From sequence record MT446416.1: a stretch of DNA of 64,000 nucleotides. One strand, 5' to 3'. The stretch's first letter is position 1. Each line of letters opens with the position of its first letter. Under the pieces are notes generated by a model, which was not told the origin of the DNA, made no database searches, and saw nothing but the letters and a program-made list of their open reading frames with translations. Shown here one piece after another: positions 8,247 through 22,385 of the stretch. The DNA is from Escherichia virus TH47. The translations under genes were made by a program, and so were the position numbers.

Positions 8247-8269
8247 CGTTTTTAATCTCTCTTAAAGTG

Positions 8270-8330
8270 CAGCGGGAACCATTCCCGCTCTCGATGTAAT
8301 ACATTATACGCCGTTAAACATAGTATGCAA
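8270..8330 (-). promoter_or_regulatory. early promoter + stem-loop module
   Basis: TTGCAT-N16-TATAAT; hairpin AGCGGGAACCATTCCCGCT. Confidence 0.6.
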
Positions 8331-8380
8331 GTACTTTCTACAAATACTTTTAAAATAGTTTTCTTTCTATATAGGGGAAC

Positions 8381-8432
8381 TATCTTTCAGTACTATCTTT
8401 CAGTACTATCATTCAGTACTATCATTCAGTAC
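8381..8432. repeat. 4 x 13-bp direct repeat TATC(T/A)TTCAGTAC
   Basis: four contiguous units read directly. Confidence 0.85.
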
Positions 8433-8596
8433 TGAATCAATCCACTAAATCATCCCTATACCCCGTAAAACGGCCTCAGACGCATTCTAACGCATTAATA
8501 CACCTAAGCTATACATTTGCACCATTCCAATCATTCCAGGGCTTTACGGGCCGTTGAAACGCGTTAAATTATTTTCAATTATTTTGTTTTTAGGTA

Positions 8597-8624
8597 TTGA
8601 CTTGATCCTGAAAAAGCGTATAAT
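8597..8624 (+). promoter_or_regulatory. plus-strand sigma70-like promoter
   Basis: TTGACT-N16-TATAAT; CCCACAGGGTGCGG box about 30 nt downstream. Confidence 0.5.
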
Positions 8625-8813
8625 TACTACATAAGCCGGACACAAGGCACTAACCCACAGGGTGCGGAATTACGCCCAAAATTCAAGATATAAAAAAAGG
8701 ATACACTCCCGCACCCTAGCAGGTCAACGCACTTTCTCAGTACTGAAATATAGTACCATAGTACTTGCCAGGATAGCAAGCAAATTAATTAAAACTTTTT
8801 TGCTTCCAGGGTA

Positions 8814-8841
8814 TTGCTTTATTTTTTCAGTACTGTATAAT
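8814..8841 (+). promoter_or_regulatory. plus-strand promoter
   Basis: TTGCTT-N16-TATAAT; CCCACCGGGTGCA box at 8870-8882. Confidence 0.45.
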
Positions 8842-8937
8842 AGTTTCATCAAGTCGAGAAAGACTCAAGCCCACCGGGTGCATAGTTACGCCCAAAATTC
8901 AGTACTGAAAAAATTTTTAAAATATCTGTCCAGGCCG

Positions 8938-8966
8938 TTGACATTGCCCCCAGTTTATAAGATAAT
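8938..8966 (+). promoter_or_regulatory. plus-strand promoter
   Basis: TTGACA-N17-GATAAT; two GGGGAA...TCCCC-type hairpins downstream. Confidence 0.45.
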
Positions 8967-9059
8967 GATTCCAGATTCAGAAAAATCTAACTCCAGATAC
9001 TGCGGGGAAACTATCCCCACGCGGTAGGGGAACTATTGGAAAAAACAAAATAAAATTTT

Positions 9060-9200
9060 GATTTAGCCGTCTATACTTCCAGACGTGTAACCATCTAGCC
9101 GTTTAGCCGTCCAAACGTCTAGCCATCCAGCCATCCAGAAATCTAGCCGTTTAGCCGTCTAGATGGATAGCCATCTTTACTTCCATACTTCTGGAGGTCT
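9060..9200. repeat. iteron cluster (TAGCCRTY x about 9) with CCAAAATCC repeats just downstream
   Basis: tagccgtc / tagccgtt / tagccatc units within about 130 bp, interleaved with tctaga-type palindromes. Confidence 0.8.
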
Positions 9201-10099
9201 AGACATATCTACGTCCAAAATCCACCCAGGGTTACTACACCCAAAATCCGTCAGTACTATACCATAGATCTATCTTTTGAAAGGGAGTATTCAGTACTGC
9301 CATCATAGCCCTCACTATGTTACCCTAGGAGGATGAAGACTATCATGTAGTACTGAATACTGTTAGAGGGAATCCACCAGCTTGTGCTGGTGGCATAATG
9401 CTTTAGATTAAAATCAGTACTGACACCATTCTGTTAATATCAGTACTGTTATTACGATTTTCATATGAGGTTCAAAAAGATGTACCACCACAGGAGGAAC
9501 TATCTTTTCTGTACTGTCTCACGACAGGAGGTAGAGTAAATGAATTGTTCGCAGCAACTCATCTCTCTATGTAGAACATTATACAGTACTGAATCATAAT
9601 GTCAATAACTTTCTTTCACCATTCAGTACTGATATTCTTGAGAACTACCCGTCTACAAACATCATTATATCCCACAAATCATAAACGTCCCAACGTAAAT
9701 TTCAACTTTCGAAGATCCAACTTTTATTTCATAGGTACTCCAAAATTTTTAGGATCGAGATTTAGGATGGAGTACTAACCAACTTTTTGCTGGAGCCTCA
9801 AGGGGTAATTGAATTTTACCCCGAAGGGTAAAAGGGTAATTGAAATTAAGGTGAAAGTAATAATTCAGTACTAATCATTGCGTGATTACTTTTGATTACA
9901 TTTGATGTAATTTGCAAAATGGAAAAGGAGCTTGGAAACTAAAAAGTACGGTAGACTTCCTCTGCCTACTTAGTGGGATATCGACACCTTCAGTACTGAA
10001 TACTTTTGGGGCAGTACTGCTACGTTCTTGATTAAACGTGCACATTCCTGTACTCTATTACACTCTAGTACTCACTACTGATCAGTACTGATCACTACA

Positions 10100-10150
10100 G
10101 TGATTATAAATGATTACTTAAATGTTTATATATGATTACTTATGATTACT
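10100..10150. repeat. ATGATTACTTA direct repeats (3 copies)
   Basis: read directly. Confidence 0.7.
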
Positions 10151-10154
10151 TATG

Positions 10155-10175
10155 ACAAAGAGAAGCCAAAAGCTT
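10155..10175 (-). terminator. terminator of small-gene array
   Basis: hairpin GAGAAGC-nnnn-GCTTCTC followed by T-rich tract on minus strand. Confidence 0.5.
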
Positions 10176-10312
10176 CTCTGTAGAGTTACGGGGTTTAGCC
10201 TGGAGAGAATCCTAGTGATCGCATTTGTCCAGGCTGAATTTTAACAATTCGCCTGTACATAAAGGTTGTTCACTAGGAGCTTCCCCAGTCTCTATGTGCT
10301 CTATATGTTGAA

Positions 10313-10522
10313 TTACTTCCTATATATAAGTATTAACATATAGTAGTACTGATTATGCTGTACATTCTCTTTAATATTATAAGGGTCTATAGCAATCTCG
10401 GTACATCTGTTAAATGCATATCTATTAAATGCCAGTACTATTAGATTGTTAACCCATGCTTGTTCGTTTTCTTTTAGTTTACTTATATAGTACTCTTTAT
10501 ACTCTTTATACTCTTTATGCAT
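10313..10522 (-). CDS. small leader-family protein (69 aa)
   Basis: N-terminal MHKEYKEYKEYYISKL (9-bp unit repeated 3 times); C-terminal hydrophobic YxLILIY. Confidence 0.6.
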   Translation of the reverse strand: MHKEYKEYKEYYISKLKENEQAWVNNLIVLAFNRYAFNRCTEIAIDPYNIKENVQHNQYYYMLILIYRK

Positions 10523-10535
10523 AGTATTATCTCTA

Positions 10536-10718
10536 TTAATATGATAGTACTAGTGTTAGTACTGAGCACAATTGTTCTTTATAGTTCTTAGGGTATATAG
10601 AATCTTTTATGCACTCATTGAAGTGCCATAGGTATAATCTTGGGTCGCATTCTTTATATATTTTTACGGGGACGAATGTTAGTTTTCTTATATAGAAGTC
10701 TTTATGTTCTTTATTCAT
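10536..10718 (-). CDS. small leader-family protein (60 aa)
   Basis: MNKEHKDFYIRKL leader. Confidence 0.6.
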   Translation of the reverse strand: MNKEHKDFYIRKLTFVPVKIYKECDPRLYLWHFNECIKDSIYPKNYKEQLCSVLTLVLSY

Positions 10719-10920
10719 ATAGGAATAGTATACCTATGATGCCTGAGTACAGGTTAGTACTGTTATTATTGTCGTTTGCGTTTAAAGTCATTTGAATACA
10801 ATTATTGTAGCATAATCTGCCGAAATATGTATCAGTACTTAAAGGTGGTGTAGTTCTTAGAAACATTTGTTCTGATGTACTGAGGTGTTTGGAGTAGTAT
10901 TCTTTATGTTCTTTATTCAT
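10711..10920 (-). CDS. small leader-family protein (69 aa)
   Basis: MNKEHKEYYSKHL leader; body paralogous to 11285..11491 (CYNNCIQ...YSGIIGILFLYE). Confidence 0.65.
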   Translation of the reverse strand: MNKEHKEYYSKHLSTSEQMFLRTTPPLSTDTYFGRLCYNNCIQMTLNANDNNNSTNLYSGIIGILFLYE

Positions 10921-10925
10921 ATTAG

Positions 10926-11111
10926 TTAGTGTCTGTATATAAGTAATAGTAAGAATACGTACTGCACCTGTTCATCTTTAGTATTGAGTACTGTACGTAT
11001 TGCGTCATGGAACAAGAATATAGTACTTGGGTCATTAGAATTTAAGGGGTTTACGGGGACGGCGTGTTTGTAGTTCCCTTTAACAAATTGTATATAGTAT
11101 TCTTTATACAT
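10926..11111 (-). CDS. small leader-family protein (61 aa)
   Basis: MYKEYYIQFV leader. Confidence 0.6.
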   Translation of the reverse strand: MYKEYYIQFVKGNYKHAVPVNPLNSNDPSTIFLFHDAIRTVLNTKDEQVQYVFLLLLIYRH

Positions 11112-11112
11112 A

Positions 11113-11292
11113 TTAGTACCTGAATATTAGGGCGAGAATGTAGTACATATAATTTTGGTTCACAGCACAGTCAGTATGGTCAATGAATTGTTGGGTCTTT
11201 TTCTTATCCTTGAAATCTATTGGGTTTAGTAGTATAAGCATTTGGGAGTTTATATCCAGATGGCTTACGTAGAATTCTTTATAGTTATTCAT
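11113..11292 (-). CDS. small leader-family protein (59 aa)
   Basis: MNNYKEFYVSHL leader; ATGAATAA start/stop overlap with upstream gene; below ORF-track cutoff. Confidence 0.5.
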   Translation of the reverse strand: MNNYKEFYVSHLDINSQMLILLNPIDFKDKKKTQQFIDHTDCAVNQNYMYYILALIFRY

Positions 11293-11491
11293 AGAAGAAT
11301 ATTAGTCCTATTACACCTGAGTACATAATATTTTTGTTATTGTATTCTAATGCGTCTAGAGTACTACGTATACAATTATTAAAGCAATCTCTGGCGTGTT
11401 GTGTATCTAAACGTAAAGGTGATACACTCCTTAGAAACATTTGTTCTTCGTTGCTGAGGTATTTGGTGTAGAATTCTTTCTGTTCGTTCAT
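11285..11491 (-). CDS. small leader-family protein (68 aa)
   Basis: MNEQKEFYTKYL leader; CFNNCIR...YSGVIGLIFFYE. Confidence 0.65.
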   Translation of the reverse strand: MNEQKEFYTKYLSNEEQMFLRSVSPLRLDTQHARDCFNNCIRSTLDALEYNNKNIMYSGVIGLIFFYE

Positions 11492-11501
11492 ATTGGCCTC
11501 T

Positions 11502-11690
11502 TTAGTACACGAAAGCTAGGTACAGTACATGATACAGTACTTGATTATAGTTGTAATAATTTATCACGCATTTAGTGCACGTAATGAAGTAGTCTTTTTC
11601 GTAGTTTATTTCTATACCGCGAGGTTCATCTTCTAACAGATTACCTTGAAGGTGCGGTGGTAAATCTTTTATGTAGTATTCTTTATACAT
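11502..11690 (-). CDS. small leader-family protein (62 aa)
   Basis: conserved start MYKEYYIKDL at 11690; ORF-track N-terminal extension is read-through of the upstream copy. Confidence 0.55.
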   Translation of the reverse strand: MYKEYYIKDLPPHLQGNLLEDEPRGIEINYEKDYFITCTKCVINYYNYNQVLYHVLYLAFVY

Positions 11691-11691
11691 A

Positions 11692-11882
11692 TTAGTACCT
11701 GAATATAAGTAGGATAGTGTTATATAGTTGGTCATAACTACTACTATTTTCTATACTGCGTTCTATGCAGTTATTGAATCCCAGTACTGCCAAATCGTTA
11801 TCCAGGGGGGGACTTTATATCTGGCGTAGTATTCAAAAATGCTGGGGAGAAATTGTGTGTAGTATTCTTTGTGGTTGTTCAT
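11692..11882 (-). pseudogene. frameshifted leader-family member (poly-G7 tract 11805-11811)
   Basis: starts MNNHKEYYTQFL; frame breaks at the homopolymer; one extra C/G restores a 63-aa ORF ending ...GFNNCIERSIENSSSYDQLYNTILLIFRY. Confidence 0.5.
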
Positions 11883-11892
11883 ATTGTTCTCT

Positions 11893-12075
11893 TTAGTACT
11901 TATATATTAGGGCGAGGATGTAGTACAGTTTATATATTCTATCCTCGTACATTAGGGTGTACTTAGTACATTCTTGAAACATTGTTTTTGCGTCATCTTT
12001 TATGCCCAATGCAACGTTTGGTATATGGCTCTGTAGATGCATTGGAAGTTTCTCTATGTAGTATTCTTTATACAT
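11893..12075 (-). CDS. small leader-family protein (60 aa)
   Basis: conserved start MYKEYYIEKL at 12075 (ATGTATAA overlap with stop of 12068..12739). Confidence 0.55.
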   Translation of the reverse strand: MYKEYYIEKLPMHLQSHIPNVALGIKDDAKTMFQECTKYTLMYEDRIYKLYYILALIYKY

Positions 12076-12739
12076 AGTTTGAAATATACGTAATGAGGTG
12101 ATGAATTTTCTTATCAGTACTGATAAGTTCCTGTACATGTTTTGTTAGTTTGTACGCGTTTTTATAGAGTCCTGGATTATCGATTACAGTACTGTACATG
12201 AATTCTTCTTCTGGTGTTAATTCTTTGTTTTGTAGTTCTTTTAGGAATTGCAGTACTGTAATAGTTTCTTCTGTACGTTGCTGTTGGAAGAAATGCATGT
12301 TATCGTGTACTTTTTCTGAACCAATGCAGTACATATCGCCGATTTGGAATTGTGCTGTACGGATATCATGGGTGCTATTACAATTCCCGAAGAAGTATAC
12401 ATTCCCGAAAGATAGAATTATAGTGCACGGGATATTATCCAGGTGCATATAGATATAGATAGATGCGTCCTCTAGTGCTTTTGTGCTGGTATTAGTACTC
12501 AATACTTTTAAATCAGTATTATAGATATTCATATAATGAACAGCTATATTATTTTTCTTCATGTACAATTCAAGGTTCTTTGATACGTTAACTCCATTTG
12601 TACTGGTTTTTTTACTTTTCTTTAGGTTCTTTAGTACATTAGGGTGATAAGTATATGCATTAGTAATAGATTCAGCCTGGATGGATTGCAAGTACTTAAA
12701 GTGCTGTAGGTATCGTTTACTTTGTGGATTGAGTTTCAT
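12068..12739 (-). CDS. long leader-family protein (223 aa)
   Basis: N-terminal KRYLQHFKYL leader-like; C-terminal domain paralogous to 21657..22307. Confidence 0.6.
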   Translation of the reverse strand: MKLNPQSKRYLQHFKYLQSIQAESITNAYTYHPNVLKNLKKSKKTSTNGVNVSKNLELYMKKNNIAVHYMNIYNTDLKVLSTNTSTKALEDASIYIYMHLDNIPCTIILSFGNVYFFGNCNSTHDIRTAQFQIGDMYCIGSEKVHDNMHFFQQQRTEETITVLQFLKELQNKELTPEEEFMYSTVIDNPGLYKNAYKLTKHVQELISTDKKIHHLITYISNYV

Positions 12740-12750
12740 ATTGGTTTCCT

Positions 12751-12930
12751 TTATATAGATGCGAGTGCGAGGATTTCCCTGTAGGGATTATCTTGTGTTA
12801 GTGCGTGATGAATGCAGCTATTGAGATTAATATTTTTAGTACTGTTAGTTGCTAGGTTGTAGTACTTCACGAAGGTGTCGTACATGAAACGGTCTTTAAT
12901 GCTTATGTGTTCTATATAGTATTCTTGCAT
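12751..12930 (-). CDS. small leader-family protein (59 aa)
   Basis: conserved start MQEYYIEHI at 12930. Confidence 0.5.
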   Translation of the reverse strand: MQEYYIEHISIKDRFMYDTFVKYYNLATNSTKNINLNSCIHHALTQDNPYREILALASI

Positions 12931-12995
12931 ATTATTCCTTAGATTTAGATTAGTTTTAGTACTTCTCTGTACGTGTACTTTTCGTTTTGTGCTTC

Positions 12996-13118
12996 TACTG
13001 TACATGATAGAAAGTATCGTTTTTATCTCTTTTGTTCCCGACTGTGTAGTACCTTTGGAATTGATTATAAATGTATCTATCTTTGTGCTGAAGTTTATAG
13101 ATATAGAATTCTTGCATA
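12996..13118 (-). pseudogene. truncated leader-family copy
   Basis: MQEFYIYKL... ORF of 40 codons; flanking sequence duplicates 12921-12980. Confidence 0.35.
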
Positions 13119-13125
13119 GAGTACC

Positions 13126-13311
13126 TTAGATAGAGATTAGTTTTAGTACTTCAATATATGTGCGGTACTCTGCTTTAATTAAATTTGTACACACTGTAAG
13201 GGAACTTCTTTGTATAAGTTTATTGCCGCTTTTATACGCATTTCTCCACACATAGAGATGAGATCTTTCTGGCATAGATAGTTTATTTGTATAGTACTCA
13301 AATGTATTCAT
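13126..13311 (-). CDS. small leader-family protein (61 aa)
   Basis: start MNTFEYYTNKL at 13311. Confidence 0.5.
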   Translation of the reverse strand: MNTFEYYTNKLSMPERSHLYVWRNAYKSGNKLIQRSSLTVCTNLIKAEYRTYIEVLKLISI

Positions 13312-13321
13312 AGTATTCTCT

Positions 13322-13507
13322 TTACATATCAATAAGTTTCAGTACTGCTCTGTACGTGTACTTAGTTGTTAGTGTTTCTTTTATAGCAGTACAGAAGTAA
13401 TGTTGTTTGTCTCTAGTACTGACGCGTTTGTAGTACCATACATGGGAGTTGTGGCTGTACTTGTCCCTGTCGGATAGTTTTTGGTAATAGTAGCTTTTAT
13501 GATTCAT
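13322..13507 (-). CDS. small leader-family protein (61 aa)
   Basis: MNHKSYYYQKL leader. Confidence 0.55.
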   Translation of the reverse strand: MNHKSYYYQKLSDRDKYSHNSHVWYYKRVSTRDKQHYFCTAIKETLTTKYTYRAVLKLIDM

Positions 13508-13618
13508 TGTAATGTAATTAGCCTTATTATGTTAAAGTACTCGGTCCCTGGTACACCTTGTAGAATATTATCAACTACATTTATTTGGTGCAGGATGAGT
13601 ACATTCGGTGCGGATCTT

Positions 13619-13717
13619 TTAAGGTTTTTTTAAAGTACTGAATTCTTGTTTAAGGATGTTCTGCACATCTTTAGGGAGAATATCTAAGTAGTACTGATGA
13701 ATGTTCATAGTTTTCAT
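13619..13717 (-). pseudogene. truncated leader-family copy
   Basis: MKTMNIHQYYLDILPKD... stops after 32 codons; resembles N-terminus of 13916..14128. Confidence 0.35.
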
Positions 13718-13728
13718 ATAGTACTCTT

Positions 13729-13914
13729 TTAGAACTTAAAGATGAGGTTCATGATAGATAAGTACTTAGTTTCAGGAAATTGATGTTCTATTGCATAACG
13801 TGTCGCCAGTCTGAAGTCAAATTTATAAAAGGGAGTATTCATATCCAGAGGTTCATTGGGGAATGAATCTCGGTATTGCTTGTGCAGCTTACTACAGTAG
13901 AATTCTTTATACAT
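13729..13914 (-). CDS. small leader-family protein (61 aa)
   Basis: MYKEFYCSKL leader. Confidence 0.6.
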   Translation of the reverse strand: MYKEFYCSKLHKQYRDSFPNEPLDMNTPFYKFDFRLATRYAIEHQFPETKYLSIMNLIFKF

Positions 13915-13915
13915 A

Positions 13916-14128
13916 TTAGTGCTCGATTAATAGGGTAAGGATGTAATAGTATTGCATACTTTCTACCCCTTGTAAAGCATTTCTTATTTTATTATTCCTG
14001 TACGAGTTCAAGAGTTTAGGACAATGTTTGAGGTTTATATAATTATTTTGTGTATACAGTAGGCTTTCTCGTAGACCTTTTGTTGGTAGTGCATCGATGT
14101 AGTACTGTTCAATGTTCATAGTGTTCAT
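13916..14128 (-). CDS. small leader-family protein (70 aa)
   Basis: MNTMNIEQYYIDAL leader. Confidence 0.55.
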   Translation of the reverse strand: MNTMNIEQYYIDALPTKGLRESLLYTQNNYINLKHCPKLLNSYRNNKIRNALQGVESMQYYYILTLLIEH

Positions 14129-14352
14129 AGAGCTACCAGTACTAAGATTTTTGATAATTGTTTATTGCTATCCCCGCAGATGTTGCTGTGTAAAATACTC
14201 GCGGTGAGGGTATCAAGTGCACTGTTCAGCATAAGGTTACATCCAGTACTGTTATGTGTTTTTAGCTCTATCAGCCACGAACTATCCGCGAGAAACTTCG
14301 CGTACTCTAGTTCAGTTAGAGTATTGATGTAGTACTTAAGTGTAGTTGTCAT
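14125..14352 (-). CDS. small leader-family protein (75 aa), first gene of array
   Basis: MTTTLKYYINTL; AAGGAG RBS; promoter 14378-14406. Confidence 0.6.
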   Translation of the reverse strand: MTTTLKYYINTLTELEYAKFLADSSWLIELKTHNSTGCNLMLNSALDTLTASILHSNICGDSNKQLSKILVLVAL

Positions 14353-14377
14353 GTACAGTTCTCCTTATATTCCTTCT

Positions 14378-14406
14378 ATAGTACACCAGTACTGAAAGGA
14401 TGTCAA
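14378..14406 (-). promoter_or_regulatory. promoter of small-gene array
   Basis: TTGACA-N17-TACTAT on minus strand, divergent from the first RCC1-like gene promoter. Confidence 0.55.
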
Positions 14407-14455: not shown

Positions 14456-15577
14456 ATGTTACCTTTTGTTAGAATGTTTGATTATGGAAATGAAGCACCT
14501 GATCCTAGTTCGGGATTTCGAATAATAAGTACAGGAGACGCATTACTATTAATTACTGAGAGTGGTGATTTGTGGGTGCGTGGTTATAACCGTTATGGCA
14601 AGTTAGGTATAGGTAATAACACCACTACCTATGTACTTGATTGGACGAAGGTTAGAAGTGATGTGAAGTTTGCGTGTGGTAGTGGATTGGTAACAGTTAT
14701 CTTTACTAAGGATAATCGTATATTGTACTGTGGTGACAAATGGTTTGAAACGGGTGGTGTTGGTAGTGCACAGATTTTCACATGGACAGATGTTACGCAC
14801 CAATTTGGGGTAGTAGATTTGAGTACAGTAAGGGATATGAAAATGTCTTATTACACGATTGGATTATTGACTACTAATAATCAATTATACGCTAAGGGAT
14901 TTGATAATAACCTATCATTTGGTGGGGTTACTAATAAGGCGACTGCTGTGTTTATTGCGAATAATGTACAAGAGTTGTATACGAGTTTAGTTAGTACTAT
15001 CTACGTTGATACAAGTGGTATATTACATCGTTGTGGCATGAGTGATAACGGTTCGTTGGGTAATAATGGTAGTTTAACTTCGTATCTAAGTTATTCACAG
15101 CCTGGTATGACGATTAAGGACATTGGAATGATGACTACGAACACTGGGTTATTATATACTGATTCTAGTGCACGCACGAGATATTTTATTGCTGGACAGA
15201 ACTTGAATAAACAGATGGGTAATGCGGCGTCTGCGAGTGCCATTACGAGTACTTACACAGAGCTTTCTGGTAGTGTTGATAAGTTTTCTTCTTTATGGGA
15301 GAATGATGGGATATTGATGACATTTGCTGTGGGTAAGAACACTAATCAGTTATTTTATGCTGGGACGAATACTTTTCATGCGAGTGGTGGTGAATCTTCA
15401 TATGCGGATACATATGAGTTAGTCCCGATGGTGTTTAATGACATACAGGAAGTGTTATGTGCACAGCGTTTATCGGTGGTACATGATTCTACGAAGTGGT
15501 ATTACTGTGGTGATGCTAATTCAATGTATGGTTTACCGGACGTAAGTACTTTTACTGAGTTACCGTTGCCCTTTTAA
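14456..15577 (+). CDS. RCC1-like repeat (beta-propeller) protein, paralog 1
   Basis: 373 aa; leader MLPFVRMFDYGN; repeated G-x-N-x-x-G-x-LG-x-G blocks. Confidence 0.7.
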   Translation: MLPFVRMFDYGNEAPDPSSGFRIISTGDALLLITESGDLWVRGYNRYGKLGIGNNTTTYVLDWTKVRSDVKFACGSGLVTVIFTKDNRILYCGDKWFETGGVGSAQIFTWTDVTHQFGVVDLSTVRDMKMSYYTIGLLTTNNQLYAKGFDNNLSFGGVTNKATAVFIANNVQELYTSLVSTIYVDTSGILHRCGMSDNGSLGNNGSLTSYLSYSQPGMTIKDIGMMTTNTGLLYTDSSARTRYFIAGQNLNKQMGNAASASAITSTYTELSGSVDKFSSLWENDGILMTFAVGKNTNQLFYAGTNTFHASGGESSYADTYELVPMVFNDIQEVLCAQRLSVVHDSTKWYYCGDANSMYGLPDVSTFTELPLPF

Positions 15578-15585
15578 TAATAGGT

Positions 15586-15616
15586 CAGTACTGAAATATG
15601 TACTGGTATTTTTTGT
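15586..15616 (+). terminator. candidate terminator
   Basis: CAGTA...TACTG hairpin followed by T-run. Confidence 0.4.
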
Positions 15617-15654
15617 AAATACTATATAATTATTTTAATTTTGGAGATTTAATC

Positions 15655-16824
15655 ATGTTACCTTTTGTTAGAATGTTTGATTATGGGAATGTAGCACCTG
15701 CACCACCGAAATTTAAAAAAATACTCACCAATAACTACAACGTTGCAGTTTTAACAAGCAGTGGGGATTTATATGTACGTGGGAATAATCAAAACGGTCA
15801 ATTGGGTTTAGGTCACAAAGAAAAAGTTACTACATGGACGTTTAGTACTTCTGGTGTTCAAGATTTTTGGTTTGGTAGTTCAACACTAGTGGTTAAAAAA
15901 ACCGATGATGAAATATGGTACAGTGGACAGTCAACCTCTGTTGGTATGCCAGGGGCATCTGTATCGGGGTGGACTTCTGCCATGCCGACATTCAATACAT
16001 TAACATTACCAATATTAGATATGGCAGTTAGTAATCAGACTACAAGTGTATTACTATCAGACCGAACAATATGGAGTACTGGGGTAGGAAGTAATGGTCA
16101 ATTGGGTAATGGAACTGCGACGAACAACATTTCAGGTAAATTCGTCAAAAGTACTGTTTCGACAGAAGAAGAACAATTACCAGTTAAATTGTTTGCCAGT
16201 AATTTAATGCATGGATATGTTACCGAGAACGGCTGGTTATACTACACTGGGCAACCCAATGCAGTTAGCACTAATGGCAGTGCGGTATATAGTGTTTATA
16301 CTAGTGCTCCTATTAGTCTAAGGAATACCATTAATATCAAGTACTATACAAATAATGGAACTTCGATGGCGATGGCTATTGGTACAGATCCAAATGGTAA
16401 GACCGTACTTGCTAATGGTGGCCCTAGGATATTTGGTGCACAGGCTGACGGAGTAAATGGTCAACTAAGTAATATTAGGCCATTTGCTGTTCAAACCGAA
16501 TCATTGATGCCTCCTGGGGATTTGGTAAGTATTGCTCATAATACTTCATATTATAACCAAGTTATTGCTACAACAGATGGTATATATTGTTGCGGCTACA
16601 ACCAATCTACACACGCTGGTATGTTAGGCATTGGTACATCTACTAACGCATTAGTATATACCAAAGCAATCGTACCTGATGGTTTTGATTATAGTAAATC
16701 GCAAATGGCAGGTGAGTATAACCGTACTTATATAACTGATGGTAATTTTGTATATAGTACAGGGACAGATGTCACATATGGTGGCATTAATAGCTTAGAA
16801 TTTGTAATAGATTCACCATTATAA
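15655..16824 (+). CDS. RCC1-like repeat protein, paralog 2
   Basis: 389 aa; MLPFVRMFDYGN; NGQLGLG / NGQLGNG motifs. Confidence 0.75.
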   Translation: MLPFVRMFDYGNVAPAPPKFKKILTNNYNVAVLTSSGDLYVRGNNQNGQLGLGHKEKVTTWTFSTSGVQDFWFGSSTLVVKKTDDEIWYSGQSTSVGMPGASVSGWTSAMPTFNTLTLPILDMAVSNQTTSVLLSDRTIWSTGVGSNGQLGNGTATNNISGKFVKSTVSTEEEQLPVKLFASNLMHGYVTENGWLYYTGQPNAVSTNGSAVYSVYTSAPISLRNTINIKYYTNNGTSMAMAIGTDPNGKTVLANGGPRIFGAQADGVNGQLSNIRPFAVQTESLMPPGDLVSIAHNTSYYNQVIATTDGIYCCGYNQSTHAGMLGIGTSTNALVYTKAIVPDGFDYSKSQMAGEYNRTYITDGNFVYSTGTDVTYGGINSLEFVIDSPL

Positions 16825-16832
16825 AAAGAAAA

Positions 16833-16862
16833 GCCAGTACTTGATACTGGCTTTTCTTTTTG
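16833..16862 (+). terminator. rho-independent terminator
   Basis: GCCAGTACTTGATACTGGC hairpin + TTTTCTTTT. Confidence 0.65.
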
Positions 16863-16897
16863 TATTAAATATAGTATAATGAATAAAGGAGGGAATT

Positions 16898-18007
16898 ATG
16901 TTACCTTTTGTTAGAATGTTTGATTACGGGAATATTGCACCTGAAGCTCCAAAGATAAAGAAAGTACTGTGCGGTCGTGATAATTTGTACGTCCTCTATG
17001 GCGATGGCTCACTTTATGGTTGTGGGGATAATGCGTATTTTCAGTTAAACGTTAAAAATGCAGCAACAAGAAATACTTGGATATTAATTTCAGAAGGTGT
17101 TACTGATGTATGGGCTGGGGCGTACAATATTCTTTATCTCAAGGGTGAAGAATTCATAATGCATGGAGTTACCACACAATTAGGCACAGGAGATACTATG
17201 ATTCCGTTGGGTGGTTTGAATGTTACTTCTTCATTTCCACATATATCTAATATTAAAATGATATCAATTGGTGCAGATACAATGCACTACGTTGATGCTA
17301 GTGGTTCGATTGTTTATGGTAGAGGCATGAATGGTAACTATTCACTCGGTGGTGGGTATTCCACGGCTCAGAGTACTTTTGTTTCAGTTATTAATACCGG
17401 AGCTAATACAGTCCTTGATATATTGGGTACACAGAATAACACATTAATATTAACATCAAATGGTGAACTTCTCGGTTGTGGGAGTAGTGGGTATGGTTCA
17501 CTTGGCGTAAGTCCAGGACAGTATACTACACTAGTAAGCAGGTTAACCAGTGTTAAACTGTTTGGTGGTAACAGTACTGGTACTCTTGCTTATTCAGCCA
17601 GCAATATATACAACGCAGGTTGGCAGTATGTTGGTCAACTTGGTAACGGTATTACAACGAACACACTACTATATCCATTTGCATTAAACTCCACTACTAT
17701 TGATAGTAAGATACATAAAATATCAAAATCAAGTACAACTTCACGTGTTAATATGTACGCAACAACCGAAGGAAAGATATATAGTACTGGTGAATTTGGT
17801 AGAAATGGTTCTGGTGGTAGTTTGAGTAGATTCACCAATACACTAACTTTAGATAATTACAACCCAGAAAAATCAGCATTATACACATGTGCAAATTTTA
17901 GTATAGTATTTGATGGTAATAATCAAATTTATGCTTGTGGTTCTTTTTTGTATGTGCCAGGTCCTATTACCACGAACTCATGGTCTGCAATTACAATGCC
18001 GAAATGA
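16898..18007 (+). CDS. RCC1-like repeat protein, paralog 3
   Basis: 369 aa; MLPFVRMFDYGN; upstream TATAAT-AAGGAGG cassette. Confidence 0.7.
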   Translation: MLPFVRMFDYGNIAPEAPKIKKVLCGRDNLYVLYGDGSLYGCGDNAYFQLNVKNAATRNTWILISEGVTDVWAGAYNILYLKGEEFIMHGVTTQLGTGDTMIPLGGLNVTSSFPHISNIKMISIGADTMHYVDASGSIVYGRGMNGNYSLGGGYSTAQSTFVSVINTGANTVLDILGTQNNTLILTSNGELLGCGSSGYGSLGVSPGQYTTLVSRLTSVKLFGGNSTGTLAYSASNIYNAGWQYVGQLGNGITTNTLLYPFALNSTTIDSKIHKISKSSTTSRVNMYATTEGKIYSTGEFGRNGSGGSLSRFTNTLTLDNYNPEKSALYTCANFSIVFDGNNQIYACGSFLYVPGPITTNSWSAITMPK

Positions 18008-18021
18008 TACTATAAAACTAT

Positions 18022-18051
18022 GCCAGTACTTGATACTGGCTTTTCTTTTTG
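18022..18051 (+). terminator. rho-independent terminator
   Basis: same GCCAGTACTTGATACTGGC hairpin + T-run. Confidence 0.65.
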
Positions 18052-18085
18052 ATTAAATATAGTATAAAGAATAAAGGAGGGAATT

Positions 18086-19243
18086 ATGTTACCTTTTGCT
18101 AGAATGGTTAAGTACGGAAATAGAGTTCCAGTACCTGTTGGGATTAAGAAGATAAACTCTGTCGGTACTAGTCAGATGATATTGACGAATACAGGCGACG
18201 TGTATGCATATGGTCAAAACACCAACTGGAGATTTGGTAGTGGTAGTTCTAGTGAGATTAGTGGGGGAGTTCCACAGATGGTAATGCAGGGTGTATCGGA
18301 TATGATATGTCATCCCAGATGTACATTATTAATAATGTCTGATGGACGTTATCTTGCTGCTGGGAACTCTACAGTACTGGGAGGTAGTTCAGGATTGAAT
18401 TATGTAGATGTTAGTTCTAAGTTCGCTACATTAGGAACTATCAAGAAAATTGATTTTACCCGAAGGAACAGTACTTCGTATACAGTATATGCATTAAACA
18501 CTGATGGTGATTTATATGGTATTGGATATGGAAACCGTGGTCAATTGGGGTTAGGTAAAAATAATAGTTTAGGTGCATTTACGAAGATAAACACCAATTG
18601 CAGGAATTTTGTAAGTTGTTCTTATGAGACGATAGTGGCTCTTAAGAATGATAATACTGCGTGGTTCTGTGGAAATTATTCGTTTATTAGTGGTAATACT
18701 GATGTTACTACATTTACTAACCTTGGTGATACTGCAATACTTAATATCTACGGTAATGGTTTAAATGGTGAGTTGTTATACACAAAAAGTGATGGTTTAT
18801 ATTTCCGTGGTTTAGCGTCGAACCGATATGGTTATTCATTCAGTTTAGAACAGCGTGCAATTAATAGCAAGATTACATTGCCGTTTGCTTATGATGTAAG
18901 TACGTTTAAGATTCTCACAGATGAACAGACAACAACCGTCAGTGTGTGGATTTCCAATTCAGACGTTCATTATGGGGTTGGTGCAAATAGCAGTAACACT
19001 AACAGAATGGGATTCACCAACCCAACTATGCCAGGTGCTGGTTCAAACTTTACATTACAGGATTTCAGTTCAGTGCAGGGCACTATTGAGACTGTTGTTA
19101 GTGCAAGTTATTATACAACTCTTATAAACTCTAATGGGAAAGTATTTGGCAGTGGGCCTTTTGATGATGATTCTTTAACTTATTTTCCTGGGAATAATCC
19201 AAAACTGATGAACTACACAGAAATTAAATTGAATATAAATTAG
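18086..19243 (+). CDS. RCC1-like repeat protein, paralog 4
   Basis: 385 aa; MLPFARMVKYGN; NRGQLGLG. Confidence 0.7.
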   Translation: MLPFARMVKYGNRVPVPVGIKKINSVGTSQMILTNTGDVYAYGQNTNWRFGSGSSSEISGGVPQMVMQGVSDMICHPRCTLLIMSDGRYLAAGNSTVLGGSSGLNYVDVSSKFATLGTIKKIDFTRRNSTSYTVYALNTDGDLYGIGYGNRGQLGLGKNNSLGAFTKINTNCRNFVSCSYETIVALKNDNTAWFCGNYSFISGNTDVTTFTNLGDTAILNIYGNGLNGELLYTKSDGLYFRGLASNRYGYSFSLEQRAINSKITLPFAYDVSTFKILTDEQTTTVSVWISNSDVHYGVGANSSNTNRMGFTNPTMPGAGSNFTLQDFSSVQGTIETVVSASYYTTLINSNGKVFGSGPFDDDSLTYFPGNNPKLMNYTEIKLNIN

Positions 19244-19255
19244 GAGAGAATAATT

Positions 19256-20416
19256 ATGTTACCTTTTGCTAGAATGGTTAAGTACGGAAACATTGCACCA
19301 TCCCCTGCTGCCATTAAAAAATTAGTTACCGGATATAACTGGGTTATGGTATTGGGTAGTAATGGTAAATTATATACCCGTGGTGCCAATTCAAGTGGTC
19401 AGTTGGGTTTAGGAGACAATACAGCCAGAACATCATGGACATTAACTGCATCGGATGTCATTGATGTATGGTGTGGTCAGTATGCCACAATGATTCACAA
19501 ATCAGATGGTACATATCAATACACAGGGAAACAATACAATGTGTGTATGGGTACATCATCTGTTAATGCATGGACTTCTATGCAAACTCTTATTAATCAA
19601 GTTAATTCTCAAGGAACAATTACAGAAATATCACTAGGAAATAACTTCATTTCAATACTTATGAGTAATGGGACCATTTGGTGTGGTGGTTATAACACAG
19701 GAGGACAGCTTGGCAATGCTTCTTATTCTAACAGTTTTACTACATTAGTAAAATCAATTATACCAAGTGGTGCGGTTCCGAAAAGGATTATTGCAGGTAT
19801 AAACATGTGTTCATTTATTGCCGAAAGTGGTAGATTATATTACACAGGTGAAGTTAATGGTGATACTAACAGTACTTCAACCGTGAGTTTTTATAATGTA
19901 TTCACATTGTCAGATAGATTACCAGCAACTGTTAGTACTATAGCATTTATAAGTACTGTTAATGATATGGTGCAAGGTATTGCAAGAAACAAAAGCACGT
20001 CAGTTGTTTCAGTGTACACAGGTGGTGATCAATTATATGGACAGGCTGCTACTGGTACTGATACTACAACAAAAATATTGACAACTGTTGTGGCAAATCA
20101 ACCACAAGGAAATATATTAGATATAGGATATGGGTACGGATATTACTCTAACTTTGTTATTACTGACACAGGTGTATACGTTGCTGGTAATAACTCAGCG
20201 ACTTCATACTATGGACAATTAAGTACAGGTTCAACTACTAACGTATTAACTTACACTAAGTCTATTACTCCTGATTTAAATTTCAATGATGTTAAAATCC
20301 AAAGTTGCTATGGTAAAACATATATGACAGATGGAAACAAAATATATTCAAGTGGTACTAACCTAGTATCTGGTGGTACTGCTAGTACTATATTTGTTGA
20401 AGATTCACCAATTTAA
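19256..20416 (+). CDS. RCC1-like repeat protein, paralog 5
   Basis: 386 aa; MLPFARMVKYGN; 12-nt spacer from paralog 4 (co-transcribed). Confidence 0.75.
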   Translation: MLPFARMVKYGNIAPSPAAIKKLVTGYNWVMVLGSNGKLYTRGANSSGQLGLGDNTARTSWTLTASDVIDVWCGQYATMIHKSDGTYQYTGKQYNVCMGTSSVNAWTSMQTLINQVNSQGTITEISLGNNFISILMSNGTIWCGGYNTGGQLGNASYSNSFTTLVKSIIPSGAVPKRIIAGINMCSFIAESGRLYYTGEVNGDTNSTSTVSFYNVFTLSDRLPATVSTIAFISTVNDMVQGIARNKSTSVVSVYTGGDQLYGQAATGTDTTTKILTTVVANQPQGNILDIGYGYGYYSNFVITDTGVYVAGNNSATSYYGQLSTGSTTNVLTYTKSITPDLNFNDVKIQSCYGKTYMTDGNKIYSSGTNLVSGGTASTIFVEDSPI

Positions 20417-20423
20417 AATAATG

Positions 20424-20452
20424 CCAGTACTCTGTACTGGTATTCTTATTTG
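20424..20452 (+). terminator. rho-independent terminator
   Basis: CCAGTACTCTGTACTGG hairpin + T-rich tract. Confidence 0.55.
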
Positions 20453-20486
20453 TATTAAATATAGTATAATGAATAAAGGAGGAATT

Positions 20487-21623
20487 ATGTTACCTTTTGC
20501 AAGAATGGTTAAGTACGGGAATATAAAAGTAAAGAGTACTATCCAAAAAGTTATCCTTGGTGGTGGTGGTCAATGTGTGGTAACATTACTCAGTGATGGT
20601 AGAGTGTATGGACGTGGTTACAACACTACACATGGGTTAGGTACTGGTACAACAACATTCGTAAGTGATTGGGTATTAATGGGCGATAATATTGTTGATA
20701 TCCATTCAAATGGTGTTCCTGGCACATTCCTTATCACCAAAGAAAATAGAATTTTGTATTCTGGTTGGGCGACACCAATCAATGGTACAACTGCACATTA
20801 TACACGTTTCACTGATTTAACATCAACTGTATTTGCTGCGGTGGATGTTAGTAATATTAAAACAATTACTGGAAATATTAATGCTACAATGGTCCTGTTG
20901 AATGATGGTTCTCTTTATGGTAGTGGTGCAAATACAGGTGTTATTGGTAATGGTAGAAATGTTGCATTATCAACACAAACATATGTAACTAATGATGTGA
21001 GAGAAGTAAAAACATATGGATCCATGACTACTATAACAAAAAATAACAATCAAATACTGGGTAGTGGTCTTTTATACCACGGCGTGAACGGTACAAATTC
21101 AATAATAAACACGTCTTCATATACATTACTGTACACATTACCGAGTTCTGATTGTTTTCAATTTGCATTTGATGAATATACATTTGGATATGTTGACCCT
21201 AGCACTAATACTTCTTATATAAGAGGTATACCAATAAATGGTTCATTGGGTAATGGTGTTACTAATAATACAGCAGTTACAACATGGGTTACTAAAGTTT
21301 GGAATACACCAATTGATAGTTCTATACCTAATAAATCACATACACTTAACCATGTCTCCTTGTTCAATGATGGAAACTTATGGACAACTGGTGCATCTAA
21401 TGTCGGTTATTCCAATGGTACAAATAGCACAACAGCTAATACTTGGACCAGTTCATCTAATTTACCATTCAACACCAATAACATCACAGACTATGCGTTG
21501 GGTAGTAATATTACTGTGGTGGTAATCGACTACAGGTCTATGTACATACTAGCTAACAACTTAATTGCTGGAACTACATCAACCACTTACAAATTTGAGC
21601 CATATAATTCTCCACCAGTTTAA
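20487..21623 (+). CDS. RCC1-like repeat protein, paralog 6
   Basis: conserved start MLPFARMVKYGN at 20487 after AAGGAGG; ORF-track extension to 20373 rejected. Confidence 0.7.
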   Translation: MLPFARMVKYGNIKVKSTIQKVILGGGGQCVVTLLSDGRVYGRGYNTTHGLGTGTTTFVSDWVLMGDNIVDIHSNGVPGTFLITKENRILYSGWATPINGTTAHYTRFTDLTSTVFAAVDVSNIKTITGNINATMVLLNDGSLYGSGANTGVIGNGRNVALSTQTYVTNDVREVKTYGSMTTITKNNNQILGSGLLYHGVNGTNSIINTSSYTLLYTLPSSDCFQFAFDEYTFGYVDPSTNTSYIRGIPINGSLGNGVTNNTAVTTWVTKVWNTPIDSSIPNKSHTLNHVSLFNDGNLWTTGASNVGYSNGTNSTTANTWTSSSNLPFNTNNITDYALGSNITVVVIDYRSMYILANNLIAGTTSTTYKFEPYNSPPV

Positions 21624-21629
21624 TATAAT

Positions 21630-21658
21630 GCCAGTACTTGAGTACTGGCTTTTCTTTT
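21630..21658. terminator. bidirectional terminator
   Basis: GCCAGTACTTGAGTACTGGC hairpin flanked by T-run, between convergent genes. Confidence 0.6.
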
Positions 21659-22307
21659 ACATATTATATAATGTGAATGCAGTCACTTTACCAGTTGTTG
21701 TTAGTTCATTATAAAGATACTCCAAGATTCTCGCACACTCTAAGTATATCTCGATATCATCATGAATAAGTGAGTACTGGAATAGCTGTTCTTCAGATAA
21801 TTTGTATTGACTCCCTCTTAATGAATTGAGAATATCTTTCACATCATCAAGTACTGGGTAAAGTACGAAATCTTCATCATATTTTGAAGCAATAAATTCA
21901 AATCCACCACCATCAGTACTAGATATACCAATCAGTACTTTATCAATCAAGTTAATGTTTATATAACGGTTGTGATTTGGGTGAATTGAAATCTCAAACA
22001 TACGAGTACTGTTACAATCAACATCAATATACAAATATACATCATTGAATTTATAAGTTAAGCAACCATACTCAATGTAATCAGAGCAAATAATTGATGA
22101 ATTTTTTCTCGTCTCTGCGTAATGCATATTGATATTCTTTTTACGCATAAGTAATTCGAACTTTGCACTAAACTTACCACCAGTAAGATAATTAGTATTA
22201 GGACGTTTGTAACTGGCAACTGGCCTATGGGATGATGAAAAGTATCTTTTTGTGAATCGTTTCTGTTTAGTGAAATATTCTTGATAGAACTTATTTCTTT
22301 TATTCAT
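21657..22307 (-). CDS. long leader-family protein (216 aa)
   Basis: start MNKRNKFYQEYF at 22307 with GAGG RBS; C-terminal domain paralogous to 12068..12739 and FQYS family. Confidence 0.6.
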   Translation of the reverse strand: MNKRNKFYQEYFTKQKRFTKRYFSSSHRPVASYKRPNTNYLTGGKFSAKFELLMRKKNINMHYAETRKNSSIICSDYIEYGCLTYKFNDVYLYIDVDCNSTRMFEISIHPNHNRYININLIDKVLIGISSTDGGGFEFIASKYDEDFVLYPVLDDVKDILNSLRGSQYKLSEEQLFQYSLIHDDIEIYLECARILEYLYNELTTTGKVTAFTLYNM

Positions 22308-22385
22308 GAGTGCCTCAATTAAATTGCTGTAAAATTGTACGTTATAAAATGAGTAAATAAAGTATAACACAAGGAGATTTTTATT

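Follow-up and report, generated by a model that had tools for sequence, protein, structure and literature searches.

Positions 10313 to 14352 on the minus strand of the window (the whole 64,000-nt stretch of Escherichia virus TH47, MT446416.1, that was analysed) carry 14 intact ORFs of 59-75 aa each, almost certainly a real protein family encoded in one operon. The genome is that of an Asteriusvirus, a PBECO4/121Q-type jumbo coliphage, and the family, an old one, is confined to this genus. The proteins (~60 aa) are predicted to fold as four-helix mini-domains, and we tentatively propose that they are early accessory proteins, each with a different putative partner.

Besides the intact ORFs, the array holds three broken copies and an embedded 223-aa gene (Table 1). 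Genes are packed head to tail, with intergenic gaps of -8, -4, 1, 1, 5, 10, 10, 11, and 13 nt and start/stop overlaps of the ATGAATAA type, confirming both this arrangement and the count of at least 14 intact genes of 59-75 aa given in an earlier note on this DNA. Gene B would be 67 aa long if the ATG at 14119 is its start, and gene E has the C-terminus ...AVLKLIDM. Residue identities of the M-slot gene alternate in blocks, 37 of them matching J2 and 34 matching M.

Table 1. Features of the array and its flanks (window coordinates; E, expectation value).
Feature	Position	Strand	Basis or remark
Direct terminal repeat boundary, hairpin and T-run	9951..9970	-	genome-end mapping; terminator-like site in scan
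30-nt insertion with 9-bp hairpin at 10159-10179	10156..10185	-	alignment of relatives
Noncoding 3' element	10186..10286	-	near-invariant in relatives
Gene S, 69 aa, last gene of operon	10313..10522	-	phrog_11711 1.5e-17; in 13/13 isolates
Gene R, 60 aa	10536..10718	-	ORF call; leave-one-out HMM E = 1.8e-4
Gene P, 69 aa	10711..10920	-	nearest paralog gene C, 53-55% identity
Gene O, 61 aa	10926..11111	-	phrog_11711 match 6e-10
Gene N, 59 aa	11113..11292	-	8-nt overlap of its start with the gene C stop
Gene C, 68 aa	11285..11491	-	phrog_11711 match 3e-13; leave-out E ~1e-12
M-slot gene, 62 aa, J2-type/M-type mosaic look	11502..11690	-	residue comparison
L-type broken copy	11692..11882	-	single C5-to-C7 homopolymer change
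Gene J, 60 aa, sequence behind structure model	11893..12075	-	phrog_11711 4e-20; AF2 pLDDT 92.8
Embedded 223-aa gene	12068..12739	-	same position in every array
Gene I, 59 aa, E-I subfamily	12751..12930	-	leave-one-out E = 2.6e-5
F-type broken copy	12945..13117	-	single A6-to-A5 homopolymer change and stop two codons early
Gene G, 61 aa, E-I subfamily	13126..13311	-	leave-one-out E = 5e-6
Gene E, 61 aa, E-I subfamily	13322..13507	-	leave-one-out E = 1.5e-5
U-type pseudogene	13508..13717	-	DNA alignment with the U genes of UB and phAPEC6, intact in both phages
Gene D, 61 aa	13729..13914	-	phrog_11711 match 4e-16; leave-out E ~1e-12
Gene B, 70 aa, B-like subfamily	13916..14128	-	group leave-out E = 7e-5 to 2e-3
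Gene A, 75 aa, first gene of operon	14125..14352	-	ORF call; in 13/13 isolates
RBS AAGGAG, strong, for first gene	14361..14366	-	invariant in relatives
Sigma70-type promoter	14378..14406	-	consensus scan score 10/12; near-invariant in 14 relatives

A profile HMM built from the copies and then searched unites 13 of the 14 intact ORFs statistically in one family, with leave-one-out E-values of 1e-5 to 1e-13 for 11 members, and a member HMM found no matches outside the array in six frames of the 64-kb window. Membership of gene A is doubtful (leave-out E = 2.1; best non-circular E = 0.06). The shared N-terminal, central, and C-terminal motifs described in the earlier note were recovered as (K)EYYIxKL, F..C(T/I), and a Y(Y)xILxLIY(R/K)Y helix. 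The first of these had been called a leader, but a detachable signal is not supported, with homology running over the whole protein length and the motif being a predicted core helix. Catalogued in part only, as phrog_11711, the family is matched to this entry end to end by the D, J, C, O, and S members (E = 6e-10 to 4e-20), and the tag is carried by 9 of the 21 array genes in the SHEFM2K annotation; the entry has no function, fold, or genomic description attached. Genes A, B, E, G, and I gave no PHROG match and are linked to the other members through the profile tests of the present analysis. Members have pI values from 5.1 to 9.6, without pattern, and are not membrane proteins (KD19 hydropathy maximum 1.23).

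The embedded 223-aa ORF, previously listed as a long member, falls in a separate PHROG and matched the family neither by HMM (E >18) nor by hhalign (probability 0.15%; best case E = 0.14-0.24). Three broken copies exist, as had been claimed, but the description of two of them as truncated does not hold, all three being frameshifted at homopolymer runs. Several lesions occur only in the U-type copy (it is frameshifted after an A-run, has gained an in-frame stop, and lacks its terminal one), while the F-type and L-type copies have one frameshifting homopolymer indel each, and neither of these broken alleles was found in an IMG/VR search. The F-type copy could be a genuine pseudogene, or its break could stem from a sequencing error. 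At least one copy in the array is a true pseudogene; 11 of the 13 isolates contain no broken copies.

Pooled omega in the annotated frame was 0.46-0.52 (Fisher p = 2e-6 to 2e-9), a value near 0.5 being also compatible with weakly constrained genes of marginal function, and in frames +1 and +2 it was 0.95-1.35 and not significant. Per-orthogroup values ranged from 0.05 to 0.6, with 0.05-0.15 in some slots and 0.05 for gene G orthologs, so that conservation is slot-specific, paralogs having an identity of only 15-53%. Synonymous variants are used for codons in conserved columns. Comparative substitution data thus show that the array genes are translated and that purifying selection on them is relaxed. 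These ORFs are very short and many are omitted by several annotation pipelines, as might be expected if they were spurious and their shared N-terminal codons an untranslated nucleotide repeat. On sequence grounds that reading is effectively refuted, its probability being close to nil, by a selection signal confined to the annotated frame, by the synonymous codons at conserved columns, and by full-length homology, to which a confident AF2 fold can be added.

Comparison with sister phages revealed 14 to 21 intact copies per isolate genome, with 13 of 22 slots variable and nine universal, and a conserved gene order in 13 isolates and several metagenomic contigs; the architecture is kept even in a lineage with <60% identical proteins. 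Individual slots are shown to be dispensable. The variation in copies and slots among close relatives bears out the proposal of a tandem multigene family, whose origin by in-situ duplication is supported by these sequences. Paralogs within a genome are only 15-59% identical, with none above 64% in any genome, and because of this divergence recent duplications or births were not seen. The terms "hyperplastic" and "rapid birth-and-death" used in the earlier note are not supported, given a fixed gene order, the lack of recent duplication, and slots under purifying selection (omega 0.05-0.6), and for the same reasons copy-number variation is loss-dominated. A pair of supposedly duplicated flanking sequences is indeed similar (78% identity against 52 +/- 4% in random pairs), but represents merely a gene-end/RBS/gene-start junction common to neighbouring paralogs.

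Upstream of gene A, a promoter that had already been recognized consists of TTGACA (14406-14401), a 17-nt spacer containing the palindrome CAGTACTG (14387-14394), and TACTAT (14383-14378). No further promoters of the TTGACA-N8/9-CAGTACTG-TATAAT class were found within the array, and the presence of one near-invariant promoter together with tight coupling points to a single operon. Adjacent terminal-repeat genes are driven by the same promoter class, and the RCC1-like neighbour genes, whose products are virion proteins (PMC7247149), have a different signal (TAAATA..TATAAT without a -35 box). The array is the last transcription unit ahead of a ~21-kb terminal repeat (repeat sizes from PMC13070987), and position 1 of vB_Ec-M-J and fEgEco12 maps to window position 9970 with 96% identity over 1500 nt. 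Within the noncoding 3' element, a 61-nt core is better conserved than the genes (93% identity in the divergent contig L002); the element has an RNA fold z-score of -4.7, with no informative covariation and no Rfam match. A terminator had been placed at 10155-10175, where a hairpin does exist; however, it lies in a 30-nt insertion that is unique to the window (absent in 15/15 relatives alignable downstream of gene S), has a weak T-tail, and was not called in a terminator scan. The hairpin and T-run at 9951-9970, 96% conserved in L002, is the likely operon terminator.

The AF2 model of gene J comprises four helices (pLDDT 92.8) and has no structural match outside the family in PDB or BFVD. Conserved columns are spaced i, i+3/4, i+7, as a helix packing face would be, and the paralogs have only a hydrophobic and aromatic core in common, formed by the (K)EYYIxKL helix, the helix 3 face F..C(T/I)..(A)(L/I), and the C-terminal YYxILxLIYxY helix, with loops and exposed positions that vary among paralogs and are retained inside each orthologous slot. 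A conserved core with a variable surface is expected of any small fold after long divergence and is no proof of different partners. The monomer model is also compatible with the conserved aromatic face being an oligomer interface. Pfam and PDB profile searches with the family gave no match, no HTH/RHH fold match was found, and no similarity in sequence or fold to characterised host-takeover, anti-defence, or regulatory proteins was detected.

T4 internal-protein loci are variable between phages and consist of small genes sharing an N-terminal capsid-targeting sequence (MKTYQEFIAE). The array resembles them as a small gene set that differs from phage to phage and has a superficially similar N-terminal motif, and the phage encodes a T4-type prohead protease and has RCC1-like neighbours in the virion (PMC7247149), all of which would suit proteins that are carried in the capsid and enter the cell by injection, their N-terminal leader having been cut by that protease. 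This option is disfavoured and very unlikely: similarity covers the whole protein, beyond any leader, the N-terminal helix sits in the core of the AF2 model, and the protease site is not conserved, an (L/I/V)xE site occurring in the first 25 residues in only 39 of 168 members and at no fixed position. Furthermore, the array has a sigma70-type promoter whereas the adjacent virion genes have another signal, and its annotated members (gp540c-548c) are missing from the 62-protein virion proteome of phAPEC6, in which a 4.7-kDa protein was nevertheless detected (PMC7247149). The array thus lacks three defining features of internal-protein loci: a conserved protease site, similarity limited to the N-terminus, and detection in virions. 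The small proteins could also be dedicated partners (chaperones, adaptors, or inhibitors) of the adjacent divergent array of RCC1-like beta-propeller virion proteins (eleven genes in phAPEC6; PMC7247149), given that two multigene arrays stand back to back around a common 103-nt control region and both differ between phages; we consider this decidedly unlikely, as promoter class and transcription-unit architecture are unlike between the arrays and no copy-number correlation was established.

Co-assembly of the paralogs into an intracellular hetero-oligomer via Tyr/Leu/Ile-rich terminal helices would be served by the stoichiometric co-expression that coupling would yield, and agrees with aromatic or hydrophobic conserved positions and a conserved slot order. 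Such an assembly is nonetheless quite improbable, since phages missing as many as one in three subunits are viable, the monomer model is confident and self-contained, and pI is patternless. The wide pI range, together with the lack of HTH/RHH, Pfam, or PDB profile matches, likewise makes it highly improbable that the members are nucleic-acid-binding regulators (transcription factors or RNA binders), even though they are small and helical, some are basic (pI up to 9.6), and a hugely over-represented genome palindrome needs a reader protein. Finally, the genes may be weakly constrained "filler" with little present function, tolerated in a jumbo capsid and slowly decaying, as is suggested by omega ~0.5, loss-dominated variation with pseudogenes, and the absence of a detectable function in the comparisons made. 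We regard this as fairly unlikely in view of an omega significantly <1 in the annotated frame only, nine universal slots, strong constraint in some slots, an invariant promoter, and an architecture that outlasts extensive protein divergence.

In T4-type hyperplastic regions, small accessory ORFs, most of them early, are clustered. Such regions resemble the array in having numerous small ORFs under host-type promoters, content that varies among relatives, individually dispensable genes, and a presumed host-interaction role; they differ in being composed of unrelated ORFs exchanged by recombination, whereas the array is one homologous family in fixed order with no recent gain. In large eukaryotic DNA viruses, the MGF110/360 families of ASFV and the terminal families of poxviruses are tandem paralogs near terminal repeats with non-essential members. 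Like these, the array lies beside the terminal repeat of a large linear genome and its individually non-essential copies are gained or lost between isolates, but proteins and hosts are unrelated and the array shows no sign of recent amplification. With just 16 copies in 121Q, 15-50% identical, the array is not the tandem array of small genes published for jumbo phages; its fold is also different, all-helical and without a metal site. Both are cases of jumbo-phage genomes growing by small-gene tandem duplication.

The T5 pre-early region consists of early genes in a long terminal repeat, and is comparable to the array in terminal-repeat adjacency, the array itself being single-copy and outside the repeat. 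The related phage PA5oct expresses its terminal-repeat genes early, by means of host RNA polymerase (PMC7318152); the array, just outside its own repeat rather than within it, adjoins that repeat and has the promoter class of the repeat genes. A region of short early ORFs in phage CBB is marked by RpoD-like promoters (PMC5259590). From promoter type and these analogies, the array is probably expressed early. Sequence and fold comparisons gave no positive evidence for an anti-defence or immunity role, and that the proteins are diversified binders is a possibility we put forward with some doubt. Under the proposed reading as early accessory proteins, host RNA polymerase would transcribe the operon at an early stage of infection, all paralogs would be co-produced through translational coupling, and each would use the common scaffold to bind its own partner, a host factor or defence component, such that the array would constitute an accessory host-interaction set whose content differs between phages.

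On the minus strand, the array contains 14 intact ORFs of 59-75 aa, one ORF of 223 aa and three broken copies, in the slot order A B D (U) E G (F) I /223 aa/ J (L) M* C N O P R S, where round brackets denote broken copies and slot names were assigned by comparison with relatives. The closest match to the window, vB_Ec-M-J, is only ~91% identical; the Asteriusvirus phages PBECO4, 121Q, G17 and phAPEC6 also match. Coordinates of all features discussed are summarized in the table.

Coordinates of the small-gene array and of neighbouring features in the window
Feature	Coordinates	Strand	Remark
Small-gene array	10313-14352	-	slots A to S
Gene A	14125-14352	-	first slot
Gene S	10313-10522	-	last slot
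Copy U	13508-13717	-	broken
Copy F	12945-13117	-	broken
Copy L	11692-11882	-	broken
223-aa ORF	12068-12739	-	embedded in array
Mixed-type gene	11502-11690	-	J2-like and M-like blocks
Array promoter	14378-14406	-	upstream of gene A
CAGTACTG palindrome, examples	14387-14394; 9584-9591; 8600-10100		first copy lies in array promoter
Noncoding 3' element	10186-10286		core ~10186-10246
Insertion	10156-10185		30 nt
Hairpin in insertion	10159-10179		perfect, 9 bp
Terminus hairpin and T-run	9951-9970		GTAGGCAGAGGAAGTCTAC then CGTACTTTTT
Region lacking a convincing ORF	8250-10312		~2 kb, rich in CAGTACTG sites
Repeat with 8-nt period	9068-9180
TGATTACTTA repeats	9883-9915; 10101-10155
Perfect promoter	9605-9578	-	TTGACA-16-TATAAT
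RCC1-like array	14456-23510	+	seven paralogs, divergent from small-gene array
Gap between RCC1-like genes 6 and 7	21624-22385		760 nt
237-aa ORF	21657-22370	-	only ORF in the gap

The earlier note had described an array of small paralogs at this locus and proposed alignment and HMM building from the 14 copies followed by profile searches; when run, these unified the family and returned a catalogue match, phrog_11711. When the 14 ORFs were made into an HMM and the full 64-kb window was searched in six-frame translation, the only matches were those ORFs and their broken siblings. Paralogs share 15-53% pairwise identity, and BLAST consequently divides the family into four small clusters. Membership was judged by a match at E < 1e-3 to a profile built without the member or its subfamily, against a background of the window's 1811 six-frame segments. 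Leave-one-out profiles recovered 12 of the 14 members at this threshold (B, 0.003; A, 2.1). With whole subfamilies removed, E-values were 1e-8 to 1e-14 for C/P, ~1e-12 for D, and 5e-6 to 3e-3 for the B-like genes. Best values in the E-I subfamily (slots E to I) were 3e-5 to 5e-4 for E, G and H, 1.1e-3 for I and 6e-3 for F, with medians up to 0.3, and these weak scores make it a distant relative. Based on the two leave-out analyses, 13 members are supported as one family by profile comparison and A is doubtful: membership of gene A was not borne out (best group leave-out value 0.06), and what suggests its kinship is limited to position, size, and a YYIxxL motif and hydrophobic C-terminus. Full-length HMM matches to phrog_11711 were obtained with J, C, S, D and O, and none with A, B, E, G or I. 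The mixed-type gene alternates between J2-like and M-like blocks and is about as close to one type as to the other, with 37 residues identical to J2 and 34 to M, a pattern suggestive of gene conversion or of recombination among adjacent paralogs.

The 223-aa ORF, which had been counted as a long member of the array, is not a detectable one, as three profile tests rejected both the whole ORF and its C-terminal domain (HMM E-values of 18 to 490; hhalign probability 0.15%). In the best case, 168 family sequences aligned with its C-terminal 72 aa colinearly over 55 columns at E = 0.14-0.24. The C-terminal 65 residues thus align colinearly, and in the AlphaFold2 (AF2) model they have a four-helix pattern similar to that of the family, a likeness that is no more than suggestive. 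The embedded gene has an omega (dN/dS) of 0.41-0.48, and a related-locus scan seeded with its protein returned solely 121Q.

For the small proteins, AlphaFold2 run on the 14-sequence alignment (pLDDT 92.8, pTM 0.77) predicts helices at residues 3-8, 12-15, 27-42 and 46-58. Conservation extends over all 39 orthogroups at columns Y7, Y8 and L12; F36, C39, T/I40 and L/I44; and Y53, Y54, I56, L57, L59, I60, Y61 and Y63. Because these columns form a helix-face pattern, with all intervening positions variable, the N-terminal KEYYIxKL 'leader' of the earlier note is instead predicted to be one core helix. A cleavable leader was rejected, an (L/I)xE prohead-protease site occurring in only 39 of 168 members at scattered positions, as was a membrane tail or secreted protein (maximum 19-residue Kyte-Doolittle mean 1.23; longest uncharged run 13 residues).

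With orthologs pooled for each pairing of the window with one of four relatives, dN/dS was 0.46-0.52 in the annotated frame (Fisher p 2e-6 to 2e-9) and 0.95-1.35, not significant, in the two shifted frames; slot by slot it ranged from 0.05 to 0.6. Codons within conserved columns vary synonymously, one column containing five different Leu codons. Selection specific to the annotated frame, together with this codon usage, shows that the array genes are translated, and leads us to reject the alternative of an untranslated nucleotide repeat, which the earlier note had named as its refutation.

All three broken copies, which correspond to the three ~200-nt gaps in the array, are disrupted at homopolymers. 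Copy U has further lesions and is a real pseudogene. Copies F and L have one homopolymer indel each, and since these are single lesions and neither allele is seen elsewhere (the exact alleles are absent from IMG/VR), they may be sequencing errors. A search of complete E. coli genomes for closer relatives by which to judge the frameshifts gave no match. The 14 broken copies in the CMSTMSU record (locus L009), which is flagged UNVERIFIED, probably reflect sequence quality. Several current annotations miss half of the family genes, the annotated fraction being 0/19 in UB (L011), 5/17 in PBECO4 (L015) and 8/18 in phAPEC6 (L013; gp540c-543c and gp545c-548c).

By tblastn, the family occurs in 31 phage records, invariably at this locus; every record is an Asteriusvirus phage of Escherichia or Salmonella. 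When 1.84 billion representative proteins were searched exhaustively with the profile, just 30 clusters matched, all of 41-75 aa, and a word-indexed search gave 56 matches, all to the same phage group or short contigs. Presence and absence of members were compared across 13 isolates, as had been proposed, and follow the conserved order A B [C] D [U] E F G F H I /223/ [V] J K J L M [C] N O P [Q] R [T] S, in which 13 of 22 slots are variable and nine are universal. The expected copy-number difference among close relatives was confirmed, intact copies numbering 14 in the window and SD-6_S16, 16 in 121Q, 17 in G17 and PBECO4, 18 in phAPEC6, 19 in UB and fEgEco12, 20 in vB_Ec-M-J and slurp01, and 21 in BF17, SHEFM2K and E9.1; the window thus has the joint-smallest set. 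The label 'hyperplastic', with recent duplication and shuffled order, did not hold: order is conserved, and the most similar paralogs of a genome share 48-59% identity in isolates, and 63% in one contig. With copies of one isolate never exceeding 59% mutual identity, the expansion predates the genus and today's variation is mostly loss, and the array is less dynamic than first proposed. A divergent metagenomic contig (L002, Logan SRR4426300) retains the architecture; its version of the 223-aa gene is 40% identical, and of its 14 intact family genes only 1 reaches 60% identity to a reference slot. Together with locus L003 it represents a more divergent phage lineage with the same architecture, 3' element and terminus hairpin included, in which nearly all family genes are of different sequence types.

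Upstream of gene A lie TTGACA-17-TACTAT (10/12 in a consensus scan) and the RBS AAGGAG, both near-invariant in 14 relatives. The promoter placed here by the earlier note therefore stands as a putative sigma70-type promoter, its -35 and -10 hexamers being kept in relatives and its 17-nt spacer lying within the 16-18-nt criterion. Downstream genes are spaced by -8 to +13 nt, often without an RBS of their own, which implies that they are translationally coupled. The promoter fits a class, TTGACA-N8/9-CAGTACTG-TATAAT, that recurs ahead of terminal-repeat genes. Terminal-repeat genes of the related phage PA5oct are transcribed early and require host RNA polymerase (PMC7318152), and phage CBB has RpoD-like promoters at a region of short early ORFs (PMC5259590). 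From this shared class and these precedents we infer probable early expression of the array; a search of the accessible literature found no Asteriusvirus transcriptome. The CAGTACTG palindrome occurs 58 times in the whole window (0.9 expected) and its core AGTACT 228 times (21 expected). A subset of copies has a fixed place in sigma70-like promoters, including that of the array, and most others lie inside genes, which suggests a phage-specific promoter element or a binding site for a phage protein. A literature search for the palindrome returned primer sequences only.

Both the vB_Ec-M-J and the fEgEco12 genome have their position 1 at window position 9970. These genomes have direct terminal repeats of 21.5 kb and 21.0 kb, respectively, the latter experimentally confirmed (PMC13070987). 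Window sequence below 9970 is thus terminal-repeat DNA, and the array is the final operon in unique sequence, reading toward the right terminal repeat. The terminus starts with a conserved hairpin and T-run exactly at the repeat boundary. The intrinsic terminator proposed at 10155-10175 was not upheld: a 9-bp hairpin is present, but its tail is UUUGUCAU and a terminator scanner made no call; the conserved hairpin with a T-run is instead the one at 9969-9951. This hairpin sits in an insertion found only in the window, absent from 15/15 relatives aligned downstream of gene S, and may represent a small hairpin insertion. Directly after gene S lies a noncoding element that is near-invariant in all relatives, folds stably (z = -4.7), and has a core 93% identical even in the L002 lineage, whose proteins are <60% identical. 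At ~215 nt from the repeat boundary, it could act in cis in forming the genome ends, or be an RNA element. An RNA reading of the region after gene S was tried and set aside, since the fold showed no informative covariation and matched no Rfam family, and tRNA and Rfam scans of the window were both empty.

Signals in the RCC1-like array differ from the promoter of the small-gene array: upstream of most of its genes (five of seven) stands a TAAATA..TATAAT-like sequence that lacks a -35 box, and hairpin terminators of their own follow two of the genes. The 237-aa ORF has no Pfam match, and its region could be a decayed RCC1 copy.

With respect to function, the family may consist of accessory proteins, each paralog having a different binding partner, a reading to which we give somewhat less than an even chance. 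It draws on the small, soluble nature of the proteins, the early-type promoter and the sharing of the fold core alone, and also on slots that are individually conserved, single slots that are dispensable, and annotated members that go undetected in virions. One rival is that the array proteins are injected, like T4-type internal proteins; injection had been listed in the earlier note beside anti-defence and immunity. The 62 proteins identified in phAPEC6 virions do not include gp540c-548c, although only 8/18 family genes of that phage were annotated (PMC7247149). RCC1-like genes do encode virion proteins in phAPEC6 (PMC7247149), and the small proteins might be their partners; the RCC1-like array is the more plastic of the two, since its first gene lacks a close ortholog (26-29% identity at the same position in most relatives, 52% in UB).

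Near-neutral filler would suit an omega near 0.5, which is high (0.17 in the adjacent terminal-repeat gene), and has to be set beside the annotated-frame selection. A regulatory role is a further rival; sequence and fold comparison gave no similarity to characterised regulator, defence or anti-defence families, searches of Pfam, PHROGs, NCBIfam and PADLOC matched only phrog_11711 and phrog_29152, and a PDB sequence-profile search gave no match to the family. Within the preferred reading of accessory binders, a more specific proposal, which we consider unlikely, is that the array is a natural library on one 60-residue four-helix scaffold, with at least 39 sequence types, each of which, at infection onset, would neutralise its own host factor or anti-phage defence protein, the set helping to fix host range. 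A bolder variant, and a rival to separate binders, would have the paralogs co-assemble as one hetero-oligomeric structure.

Small-gene tandem expansions in jumbo phages are already known (PMC5646251, PMC7824862), and part of this family is already clustered, and catalogued without function, as phrog_11711; searchable papers do not describe the family itself. What is new is the union of the upstream subfamilies with phrog_11711, a confident predicted fold, the slot map, and placement at the terminal-repeat junction. The present result is mainly a tidier description of an uncharacterised, single-lineage family and an annotation correction. Asteriusvirus phages are under development as therapy against APEC, UPEC and O157, so accessory-array content that possibly affects host range has practical relevance. 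The array would be a good screening target, for which natural 14- to 21-copy variants exist for comparison, and if the binder hypothesis is true, it would yield, on one compact scaffold, at least a dozen new small proteins that inhibit E. coli proteins or defence systems.
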